21,804 bases of DNA from Minisyncoccota bacterium. GTDB taxonomy: Bacteria; Patescibacteriota; Minisyncoccia; Phycocordibacterales; JBAYGS01. The stretch lies in NCBI GenBank assembly GCA_041666545.1, contig JBAYGS010000001.1, positions 1 through 21,804 of the forward strand, written 5' to 3'. Made by a program: the position numbers and the translations under genes. The first letter of the stretch is position 1, and each line of letters opens with the position of its first letter. Under the pieces are notes generated by a model, which was not told the origin of the DNA, made no database searches, and saw only the letters and a list, made by a program, of their open reading frames with translations. This document shows, one piece after another, positions 8,381-13,267 of the stretch.

Positions 8381-8407
8381 AATCTACAAGGTCCGGCCTT
8401 GTAATTA
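8381..8407 (+). repeat. 27-bp element AATCTACAAGGTCCGGCCTTGTAATTA (copy 1) containing a 7-bp hairpin TACAAGG-tccgg-CCTTGTA
   Basis: A perfect 27-bp direct repeat of 13241-13267. It lies 12 nt after the stop of the upstream gene. Confidence 0.85.
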
Positions 8408-8424
8408 TTGCAATCAAATCATTC

Positions 8425-11400
8425 ATGGAATTCGTGAGTGTTTTTTGCTACTATTTGCATATGTCGGAAAAATTTTCTAAGCAAGGTGAGGTAAACAAGG
8501 TGGTTTTAAGGCCTGAGGATATGGTGGGTAAGTTTGATGTCGACGAGAAGCGTAAAAAAGACACCATTCGGGAAAGGGCGACGGATCGTTTAATCAAGGG
8601 TTTGTTGAGAGGTTATATAAGTTATACCGAAGAGAATAATCTTGAAGGTGTCGACCATGTTCGCAGCGAGCACGATAAGGGTGATGATTATGACCAAGAT
8701 GATGACTTAGATAATAACGACAATGTTGATTGGGAATGGGAAAGAAAACAAATCCTTTCTAGGATACCAAGTGAAGTAAGAGTTCTTCCGGAAGTACAAA
8801 AAGCCGCCAAGGAAGGGATGCTCTTGTGCCTAGAGAGTGGAAACCTTGCAGAAGCTGTCGACATTAAAGATGTGTTCTCCCTTCCGACTGAATTTATTCA
8901 TTCTGTCGCCGCACTCAACGCCATTAAGGATGAGCTGATTCGTTGGGATGATACGGACAGGATTGTTGGGCTAGTGAATAAATTTTTTCCTAATCTCTCC
9001 CCAGAACAGGCGCTTTCTCCTGAATTGGAGTCCGCCTTCAAACATGTAATAGCCCAACTTCTTTCGGAGGGGTACACTGAAAAAGCGATTGAAATAAAAA
9101 GCAAACTGTCTCTTGGTGCCGAAGTGATCAGTTCGCCAGAAGTCCAGAATGCCCTTAAGAAGAAATTTTCCGATGATTTGCTTGTCGGGGATGTTCGCGA
9201 GGCGGAACGCCTCCAGAAACATTTTTTGCTTACTACTGAATTCATGCATTCGCCAGAAGTTCAGGCGGCTGTTAAGTATCGGGTGGCCGACATTTTATCT
9301 CGCCGTGACTATGATTTTGTCAAAAATGCCACTGAAGTCGGGATTAAATTTTCGCTCCTGAAAGAAAACCTTCAAGAGGCGGCAAAGGTTGGAATGGTGG
9401 CCAACTTATCAAGAGGAAATATTCACAATGTAATCGAGATTAGGGATAAATTTGAGCTTCCGAAGGGGGTTAGCACATCTCCGGAAATGCAGCAGGCCGC
9501 CAAAGAGGGAATGATGAGTTGTCTAGATATCGACAATATTGACGCTTTAACTAAGAGGGCAATATCCATAAAGGAAGAGTTTTCTGTTCCCGACGAGTTC
9601 CTGGCCTCTTCCGAGGTGCAGTCGGCGGTTGCACGCATCGTGACATATTGTATATCGGGGGTTCACTATATGCTTGACCGCGCGGTTGAAATTAGAAATA
9701 TTTTTTTACTTTCGGAAGACTTAACTCAAGAAGCGGTGAAGGTGGGAATGATACGCCAAATCGTACGAAATAATCTGCCGGTGGCAGAAAAGATGAGAGA
9801 AGCTTTTTCAATTCCCGAAGGTATCATGCATACCCCAGAAGTTCAGTTGGAGGTTAAGGGTCTATTAATCCGGTACCTGGAGACCGGATCTGCCGAACAG
9901 GCACTGAAACTGGCAGACGACCCGTCTTTTTCTTCAGAGACGCTGGTTTCTCCGGAGATCCAAGAGTGTGCCCGAAAGGCTTTAGTACGACACATACTTG
10001 GGGGGCGGATCGGCGCGTATAACAATGGTTACTTTCGGACCTGTGAGTTGATTAGGGATAAATTCGCGCTTCCGATTGATTTTAATACTTCACCGGAAAT
10101 CGAAGAAGCCGTAAAAAAACTCACAATCAGTCTTTTGACCGGCGCTTACACGACCGATCATTCGACCGAAGTGATAAATCAGTTCCCCGTCGTTTCAGCT
10201 AGGGTTATCCCATCTCCTGAAGTCCAAAATGCCGTTAACGCGCGAATCATTGACCGATTTGCCCACGCTGACACTGCTCCTATCAAGGAATACCAAGAAA
10301 GATTTGGTGTGTCTCCTGAGGCCATGAGGCGATGCGCCAGGGAGGGGTTGTTGAGCCTACTGTCTAATGGTAAGTCCAGCAATATTCGTGACTACGATAA
10401 TCTGGTAAAAAATTTCTCATTCACACAGGAAGAGCTTTCTTCTCAGGAAATGCAACAGGCAGTCAAAAATGGGATGTCAAAATATATAGAGCAAGGCAAC
10501 ATAAGACTGGCCGTGGAAATAGCACAGAAGTTCTTTCTTCCTGCCGAGGAGTTAAACCGAATTGCCGAAGGAGAGCTAATAAAATTTCTAAACATAGGTA
10601 ACCGCAGTATCTCGATTGGGATTAAAGATAGTTGCTCAATCTCCAAGGAATATATTTCTTCAGTGCCTGTCCAACAGGCGGCAAAAAACGGAGTCATGAG
10701 GCAGCTTTCAAAAGAAAACATTGAGGACGCTGTTCAGATTAAAAAGCAATTCTCTCTCACCGACGAAATCTACACGCAAGCCTCGATAGAAGCCGTCGCC
10801 AGTATTTTATCTGGGGGATCGTTTGAAGCTACCATGAGAATTAAGGGTCGGCTTCAGCTTTCAGATGATGCAATGTCACAAGTGGGGAAGCGGGCCTTCC
10901 TGAAATGCTTGTTGGATGAGAAAAAAGATATGGCAGGAAAAATTAAAGAGAAGCTTAGGGTGACCGTGAACAGTGAAGATATTTTCGGCTTCTTTCCAGA
11001 AATGCGTAAAATTCTGTCTGATTTGGCGGCTGTCTCTCCCGAATTTTCTGCACAAGCTGAAAGAACGCCGGATTTGCTTTTGAGTCTTCTGGAGTTTAGG
11101 AACGACCTGGGCAAAATAATTCGGATTGCGAGGGAGAACCCGTTTCTTTTAGACGCTGTGGCAGCCAATCCGCGTTTTGGTTCACGCCTACTGATTAAGT
11201 ATCCGCAGTTCGACACAATTGCAAAAAGTAGTATAAAGACTCAGTTTGAAATCAAAAAGAAGATAATGGCGGAGCATCCAGATGTTGACCCTCAATCGGT
11301 TGAATTTCGCACACTGATGCAGGACTCTCTTGTGGGGTACAGATTAAATAAGCAGGTTTTGGAAAGTATCGATGCAAAGGGCATAAACTCAGAGCGTTGG

Positions 11401-13236: not shown

Positions 13237-13240
13237 CCTG

Positions 13241-13267
13241 AATCTACAAGGTCCGGCCTTGTAATTA
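13241..13267 (+). repeat. 27-bp element AATCTACAAGGTCCGGCCTTGTAATTA (copy 2)
   Basis: Identical to 8381-8407. It lies 4 nt after the stop of the giant gene. Confidence 0.85.

Follow-up and report, generated by a model that had tools for sequence, protein, structure and literature searches.

Two perfect 27-bp repeats beside a giant gene of a Minisyncoccota bacterium are probably copies of a REP-like palindromic element

In the genome of a Minisyncoccota bacterium (Patescibacteria; assembly GCA_041666545.1), the gene for a giant protein lies between two perfect 27-bp direct repeats, each with an internal hairpin. The question raised by this locus is whether the repeats delimit the gene as a movable unit or belong to an element that is independent of it. 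The DNA analyzed here, hereafter the window, comprises 21,804 nucleotides (nt; positions 1 to 21,804 of contig JBAYGS010000001.1) and represents the end of a 341-kb metagenome contig, k141_82438 (ENA ERZ27249449); the organism is annotated as Candidatus Paceibacterota. An earlier sequence-only reading of the window proposed as candidates an att-like or cassette-boundary site, an RNA-processing or stability element, and a protein-binding site. The comparisons presented below make it likely that the two repeats are copies of a small mobile element that resembles repetitive extragenic palindromic (REP) sequences and was spread by a Y1 transposase similar to the REP-associated tyrosine transposases (RAYTs), and that they are not cassette boundaries.

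The window contains the 27-mer AATCTACAAGGTCCGGCCTTGTAATTA exactly twice, both times on the plus strand (8381–8407 and 13241–13267), with a start-to-start distance of 4860 bp (repeat family D13). This exact scan agrees with the sequence-only reading that the copies are identical and lie 12 and 4 nt past stop codons, with 0 expected by chance. Allowing up to three mismatches yields nothing beyond the two copies in the window (0 expected from 100 dinucleotide shuffles), and the hairpin itself, TACAAGG-N5-CCTTGTA (7-bp stem, 5-nt loop), searched with up to two mismatches, is found only at the same two sites. Both copies are singlets in the same orientation, and their identity is confined to the 27-mer (flanks tgtta...ttgc versus cctg...ccga). 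The folding energy of the 27-mer is -9.0 kcal/mol for RNA (z = -4.0) and -5.3 kcal/mol for DNA, the z scores of the folds ranging from -4 to -5.5, and the unit has the size and stem-loop form of the short palindromes (~20–40 nt) found in REP/RAYT systems. The GC-rich stem and U-tract of an intrinsic (Rho-independent) terminator are lacking: G-C pairs account for three of the seven in the stem, a T-run is absent behind both copies, where ATTATTGC and ATTACCGA come after the stem, and neither copy is called by a terminator scan of the window that calls classical terminators elsewhere. The earlier description of a poor intrinsic terminator is thus upheld.

Outside the source organism, the exact 21-nt core of the repeat has no match in species genomes or viral contigs, and is found twice in the JGI contig Ga0209512_1000004 (848,564 bp), at the loci L009 and L010, which are separated by 347 kb; at least seven hairpin copies are present in the 23 kb of this contig that were sampled. 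The exact 19-mer of stem and loop (TACAAGG-TCCGG-CCTTGTA) occurs at eight loci among 185,579 species genomes, three of them from a single metagenome-assembled genome (MAG), and by our own estimate about four matches would be expected by chance across this whole collection. The titles of these loci name Saccharibacteria or Paceibacterota in six cases and read "MAG: bacterium" in the other two. No transposase gene lies within the 8 kb fetched around the eight loci. The core hairpin adjoins unrelated genes in other Patescibacteria genomes, and after many of them a single hairpin stands alone; intergenic copies are mostly located 2–30 nt past a stop codon. Inverted doublets, the arrangement that characterizes REPINs, are present at L010 (within tsaD), L009, L021, and L022. 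Four control loci (L003, L005, L008, and L011; 58 kb) contain zero hairpins. The earlier notion of a sequence-specific element is upheld, and the search of related genomes that the sequence-only reading had proposed did find further copies, but these do not always follow stop codons, some being located within open reading frames (ORFs).

In an alignment of 30 copies, conservation is restricted to the 19 nt of stem and loop, with biases at positions -1 (a pyrimidine in 22 of the 30) and +1. About one third of these copies show the tetranucleotide GTAG on one or the other strand, where it overlaps the stem; the minus strand of the two copies in the window reads CCTTGTAG. Because the identity of the two window copies reaches 4 nt past the family core on each side (27 versus 19 nt), it indicates that they probably share recent common descent from one master copy within the source genome.

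A link to a transposase gene is observed in related genomes. At L009, a 232-aa gene matches Pfam Y1_Tnp (E 1.7e-10), carries the HuH motif "NHYHLL" and the tyrosine motif "RYIHLNP", and has NF047646 (REP-associated tyrosine transposase, REP_Tyr_transpos; E 1.3e-11) as its sole NCBIfam match. Two mutually inverted hairpins flank this gene, one 10 nt 5' of its ATG and the other 2 nt past its stop codon; an inverted pair lies within the ORF, and a further, degenerate copy is found 5 kb off. Rfam gives no match at this locus. An independent test is provided by L022 and L024, which were picked solely by protein homology to the L009 transposase (74 and 61% identity, respectively): both show the same four-hairpin layout (upstream, internal pair, downstream) with the same stem. 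In all three loci the repeats thus stand in inverted orientation on the two sides of a Y1 HuH transposase gene. The loop is mostly locus-specific, being TCCGG at L009, TCCAG/CTGGA at L022 (TTCAA in the downstream copy), and TTCAA/TTGAA at L024. The transposase family is large, with 7801 significant homologs among 8000 scored candidates, and among the best matches listed only Patescibacteria appear where a lineage is named.

The pair of hairpins inside the transposase gene is read as "(S/A)TRxxLV...LQGxxL" in 10 homologs (61–100% identity), in which the stem-encoded residues are constant and the loop-encoded residues variable. This inverted doublet occupies the same position in all three genes (L009 8539–8589, L022 7934–7987, and L024 10441–10491), and its loop bases agree with most flanking copies of its own locus. 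This agreement suggests concerted evolution or an autoregulatory role. Additionally, a 54%-identical paralog, P0029, read in L023, is flanked by a different hairpin, ATAGG-TCCGA-CCTAT, which suggests that each transposase may have its own hairpin type; the P0029 cluster is also recorded on Ga0209512_1000004, tying two divergent paralogs to one contig. L009 and L024 share 84% identity in the spacer that separates an SLT-domain gene from the transposase, as compared with 61% for the transposases themselves, and the transposase therefore sits at an orthologous locus in two species, which fits vertical inheritance as in RAYTs. This spacer (L009 9059–9292, L024 9741–9962), located between the divergent SLT-domain and transposase genes, contains a conserved hairpin, GTAATCT-AGCCCAACC-AGATTAC, and may include a regulatory element or a small RNA.

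A filled and an empty site can be compared in tsaD. At L010, a 45-nt inverted doublet lies in frame within this gene, whose product is 372 aa long; nine orthologs with 75–85% identity measure 356–357 aa and lack exactly the 15 residues TYKAGPCNTTRSGLV. These residues lie in a loop between conserved TsaD motifs, which is shorter in the closest TsaD of known structure. The syntenic locus L025 contains no 45-nt block matching the doublet and zero family hairpins in 21 kb. Since the site is filled in one species and empty in others, this comparison across species argues for a mobile DNA element over a signal that acts purely at the RNA level.

REPs and REPINs together with RAYT (TnpA-REP) Y1 transposases have been described in Enterobacteria and Pseudomonas (PMC3116915, PMC5581495, PMC3479197). 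RAYTs have been described as single-copy transposases that are inherited vertically and whose associated REPs often form inverted doublets (PMC5581495). The REPs themselves have been described as short hairpins that carry a guide at their base (PMC6006769), a tetranucleotide that reads GTAG or CGTC (PMC3733652, PMC6006769). The Patescibacteria family resembles these systems in being a short extragenic palindromic hairpin, typically located just past genes and occurring as singlets and inverted doublets, and in having a Y1 HuH transposase gene between inverted hairpins, at a conserved chromosomal locus and with paralogs that use different hairpins. It differs from them in that its stem is identical across very distant lineages, in that doublets are found in frame in coding genes, including a conserved one in the transposase ORF, and in that its transposases, of ~225–233 aa, have an extra C-terminal region.

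Several observations weigh against the assignment to a RAYT-driven element. Copy numbers are in units, with one to three exact 19-mers per species genome, as opposed to the tens to hundreds of classical REPs, and the sample of the source genome (~27.4 kb: the window, L002, and L011) holds two copies only. No guide tetranucleotide, GTAG or CGTC, is conserved outside the stem in the 30 aligned copies. The L009 transposase scores 44.6 bits on NF047646, below the cut-off of 80, and PDB searches with the transposase returned only a weak match to ISDra2 TnpA (profile search, E 0.02). A tblastn search finds no Y1 transposase gene in the window, and no homolog from the source contig is among the best 120 transposase matches. 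On account of the low copy number, the lack of an outside guide, the sub-threshold RAYT score, and the lack of a window transposase, we regard the element as one that probably works like the REP/RAYT system and is a variant of it, not a confirmed member. The sequence-only reading had held that dozens of copies after unrelated genes would point to a generic REP or terminator element; the evidence shows, in essence, such a generic REP-type element, although the ~27.4 kb of the source genome that were covered hold two copies.

By analogy with REP/RAYT systems, the hairpin would form on transiently single-stranded DNA, where a RAYT-like Y1 HuH tyrosine transposase would recognize and cleave it and then join the ends, copying single hairpins or inverted doublets into new sites. 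Copies would persist where they do little harm, i.e., in the short gap that separates a stop codon from the signal that follows it, as with both window copies, or within protein loops that tolerate an in-frame insert. The two sides of the giant gene would then represent two neighboring post-stop sites that became occupied, presumably by the same activity in the source genome, and not the ends of a unit. As secondary effects, the hairpin at the 3' end of an mRNA (-9 kcal/mol) may slow 3'-exonucleases or affect ribosome release, and the 27-bp direct repeats could at times cause deletion of the 4.86-kb segment between them.

The giant gene itself appears in this light as a neighbor of the element and is no part of it. 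The C-terminus of its product matches Pfam Acetyltransf_1 (E 3.9e-07), and its start varies by source: 8425 in ENA, 8461 in NCBI, and 8500 in Logan. Copy 1 is therefore located 17–92 nt 5' of the gene, depending on the start called, and the earlier statement that the repeats "precisely bracket" the gene holds for the 3' side, 4 nt past the stop codon, and depends on the start codon for the 5' side. Copy 1 is separated from the starts at 8461 and 8500 by a predicted terminator-like hairpin (Table 1). As the intrinsic terminator of the upstream ORF, this hairpin is a likelier candidate than the REP-like hairpin, which it shows to be a separate feature. The neighbors of the giant gene are hypothetical genes upstream and an M23 peptidase gene downstream. 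When the two flanking proteins were looked up by exact match, two contigs were obtained: the source contig and one from a different run, which matches it at 100% identity over window positions 3792–14093 and retains the giant gene. No variant lacking the gene was among them, and an exact look-up of protein P0001 returned no match. Homologs of the giant protein with 43–56% identity are found in Paceibacterota, Taylorbacteria, and other Parcubacteria. At four loci with such homologs (L003, L005, L008, and L026) the neighbors differ, and neither a repeat shared between upstream and downstream sides nor a copy of the hairpin is present; as judged from these loci, the repeat does not seem to belong to the giant gene as such.

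Table 1. Features of the window, and giant genes at the transposase loci of related genomes (positions of the latter refer to the locus named)
Feature	Position	Strand	Remarks
Upstream gene	7844–8368	+	174 aa, without family match; TAA stop, then copy 1
REP-like copy 1	8381–8407	+	Core hairpin 8385–8403, TACAAGG-TCCGG-CCTTGTA; 12 nt past stop of ORF 7844–8368
Terminator-like hairpin + TTTTTT	8420–8446	+	13 nt past copy 1; consensus scan only
Giant gene	8461–13236	+	1591 aa (NCBI); ~1100 aa of helical repeats, then C-terminal GNAT acetyltransferase domain; TAA stop
REP-like copy 2	13241–13267	+	Identical to copy 1; core hairpin 13245–13263; 4 nt past giant-gene stop
Possible degenerate half-copy	2585–2597	-	CTACAAGGTCGGG, 1 mismatch to left arm + loop; within D3 terminator hairpin; weak
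Possible half-copy, second instance	3714–3726	-	In second copy of 100-nt repeat D3
Giant gene near transposase, L009	1–7125	-	
Giant gene near transposase, L022	8352–16715		
Giant gene near transposase, L024	1–9003		
Giant gene near transposase, L024	10787–14824		
Giant gene near transposase, L023	13906–20675		

Among the functions that the sequence-only reading had suggested, a protein-recognized site, as the probable substrate of a Y1 transposase, and a role in RNA stability are plausible, whereas an att site or cassette boundary is not supported. The RNA-level role could even be the primary one: the hairpins would then be 3'-end stabilizers, weak terminators, or modulators of translation termination that are kept after stop codons by selection, their mobility being incidental or absent. 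The placement of the window copies on the sense strand 4–12 nt past stops, the preference of intergenic copies elsewhere for similar positions, and the stable RNA fold all speak for this possibility. E. coli REPs are known to stabilize upstream mRNA and to reduce translation if located within ~15 nt of the stop codon. Such a role leaves unexplained the in-frame tsaD doublet that close orthologs lack, the hairpins on both strands around and within the transposase gene, and the conservation of the stem sequence, beyond mere pairing, over distant lineages; moreover, ordinary terminators with a GC-rich stem and a T-run are present elsewhere in the source organism. We give a primarily RNA-based element a small, if appreciable, chance, and a secondary RNA role is compatible with the explanation that we favor. 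Alternatively, the two hairpins could be the ends of a non-autonomous IS200/IS605-like unit with the giant gene as cargo, the 4.86 kb being moved by a Y1 transposase acting in trans. IS200/IS605 insertion sequences (ISs) have at their ends subterminal hairpins that face the same way on one strand (PMC6006769), an arrangement also seen in the window copies. At L022, hairpin doublets lie close to the 5' end of a 2787-aa gene adjoining the transposase and again 5 nt past the stop codon of this gene, and homologs of the giant gene lie in a different neighborhood in every genome examined. Yet none of five loci of these homologs has flanking hairpins, loss of synteny is expected anyway at 43–56% identity, these genes were found outside the source contig on a single, identical contig, lone hairpins follow many unrelated genes, and with ~20 intergenic sites in the window two copies would be adjacent by chance about 1 time in 10, by our own estimate. 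The Patescibacteria system does share with IS200/IS605 elements and their miniature derivatives, the palindrome-associated transposable elements (PATEs), the Pfam Y1_Tnp family, subterminal hairpins recognized on single-stranded DNA, and short non-autonomous derivatives. It departs from IS200/IS605 elements in that the two hairpins beside the transposase gene point in opposite directions instead of being co-oriented, no tnpB is present, the gene sits at an orthologous locus in two species and not in multiple IS copies, and the dispersed copies are bare hairpins of 19–45 nt. A cargo-carrying unit of this kind is very unlikely.

That the repeats are att-like sites or integron-type cassette boundaries for a site-specific recombinase, the lead candidate of the sequence-only reading, is scarcely credible and already largely refuted. 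One gene does lie between perfect direct repeats, a tRNA-Gln gene is located 3.3 kb upstream, and the G+C content from ~4.8 to 14 kb (0.40–0.47) is lower than that of the flanks. The attC sites of integrons and the att sites of prophages or islands likewise are repeats at both ends of a gene, and attC sites are also recognized as folded single strands. The attC sites measure 57–141 nt and accompany intI. By contrast, none of the window genes shows an integrase or recombinase domain, the repeats are of the wrong size and form no array, and the 3' end of the tRNA-Gln gene (5049–5124) occurs once in the window and is not repeated. The hairpin instead occurs singly after unrelated genes elsewhere, as a 19-nt near-palindrome that is shared with other genomes and tied to a Y1 transposase; homologs of the giant gene are unbracketed, and the identical second contig keeps the gene. 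A parallel to one of the features seen here is offered by the Rickettsia palindromic elements (RPEs), which likewise include palindromes inserted in frame in protein-coding genes, essential ones included, without destroying the gene. RPEs are ~100–150 nt long, have no known associated transposase, and are known only from Rickettsia; the Patescibacteria insert differs in measuring 45 nt and in being tied to a Y1 transposase.

The preferred explanation thus remains that of copies of a REP-like element spread by a RAYT-like transposase, and a bolder form of it deserves mention. The hairpins might belong to an undescribed REP/RAYT-like system that extends over the whole Patescibacteria lineage, with an unusually conserved hairpin and with doublets that are kept in the transposase ORF and insert in frame in essential genes; direct copies around giant genes (in the window and at L022) might then permit Y1-mediated excision or movement, or control of expression. 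We consider this extended reading unlikely, and that directly oriented hairpins make giant genes mobilizable in trans has a small probability. REP/RAYT systems have been described mainly in Proteobacteria. A full-text search of the library covered returned no paper tying RAYTs or REPINs to the Candidate Phyla Radiation (CPR) or Patescibacteria, and the hairpin family appears to be undescribed in the latter; its unusual features are the in-frame insertions, the conserved doublet in the transposase ORF, and the identical stem over distant lineages. If the link to the transposase holds, it would account for a class of short exact repeats in very small, gene-dense genomes, and would caution annotators against taking such repeats for att sites or cassette boundaries. 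It would also provide a clean case of palindromes that lie in frame in an essential gene (tsaD) and persist within a transposase gene, as well as a compact hairpin-enzyme pair for the study of single-strand DNA transposition and domestication. For the window, the outcome is deflationary: the repeats alone give no ground for calling the giant acetyltransferase gene a mobile cassette.

Some further observations concern the window and the loci compared with it. A 24.6-bit antisense tblastn match of the transposase at 13478–13627 was considered as a transposase remnant and rejected, its HuH motif being broken and the opposite strand being occupied by the Pfam-supported M23 peptidase gene; the remaining tblastn matches in the window are translated hairpins only. 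Giant genes stand beside all four transposase loci as well, with products of 1345 to >3000 aa that are RCC1, fibronectin-type, or Laminin_G-type surface proteins. In the giant gene of the window, positions 8785–10476 encode the N-terminal half of the protein as diverged repeats with an "SPE(V/M)Q.A.K" motif, and the DNA repeats are spaced in multiples of ~231 nt (77 aa). A long imperfect hairpin (CCCCTCT CCATT ... AATGG AAAAA AGAGGGG) without a T-run is located at 13281–13331, between copy 2 and the M23 peptidase gene. The region from ~4800 to ~14000 consists of the tRNA-Gln gene, four genes without family match, and then the giant gene, with its low G+C content set between flanks of ~0.50; it is island-like in look, yet without an integrase or a repeated tRNA end. 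Rfam finds only the tRNA in the window.

A search for half-copies of the hairpin with up to two mismatches gave 4 matches against 0.31 expected; the sites 2585–2597 and 3714–3726 count as a single event, both lying inside one duplicated 100-nt segment (D3). This segment occurs twice, at 2565–2664 and 3694–3793 (also 2653–2693 and 3820–3901), with 96% identity and after two consecutive genes. Each copy combines a terminator hairpin rich in G+C (CCCCGAC...GTCGGGG) with a CT-rich tract, followed by short ATACC-type tandem repeats, and the loop of the terminator hairpin holds the minus-strand 13-mer listed in Table 1.

At the giant-gene homolog of L003 (Taylorbacteria), the 3' end of a tRNA-Gly gene (1245–1316), CCCCCGTCCCGCACAAAT, is repeated ~330 nt downstream (~1600–1625), directly 5' of the homolog, and resembles a leftover att duplication. 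Finally, the window contains another family of intergenic palindromes (14064–14101, 16209–16239, and 17749–17779) with the core GTTCCACTTTAG-N-CTAAAGTGGAAC; among all loci fetched, its copies were confined to the source genome. The copy at 14064–14101 is a perfect 38-bp palindrome between convergent genes, and the family could be another one of REP-like type, or else act as a bidirectional terminator or as an operator.

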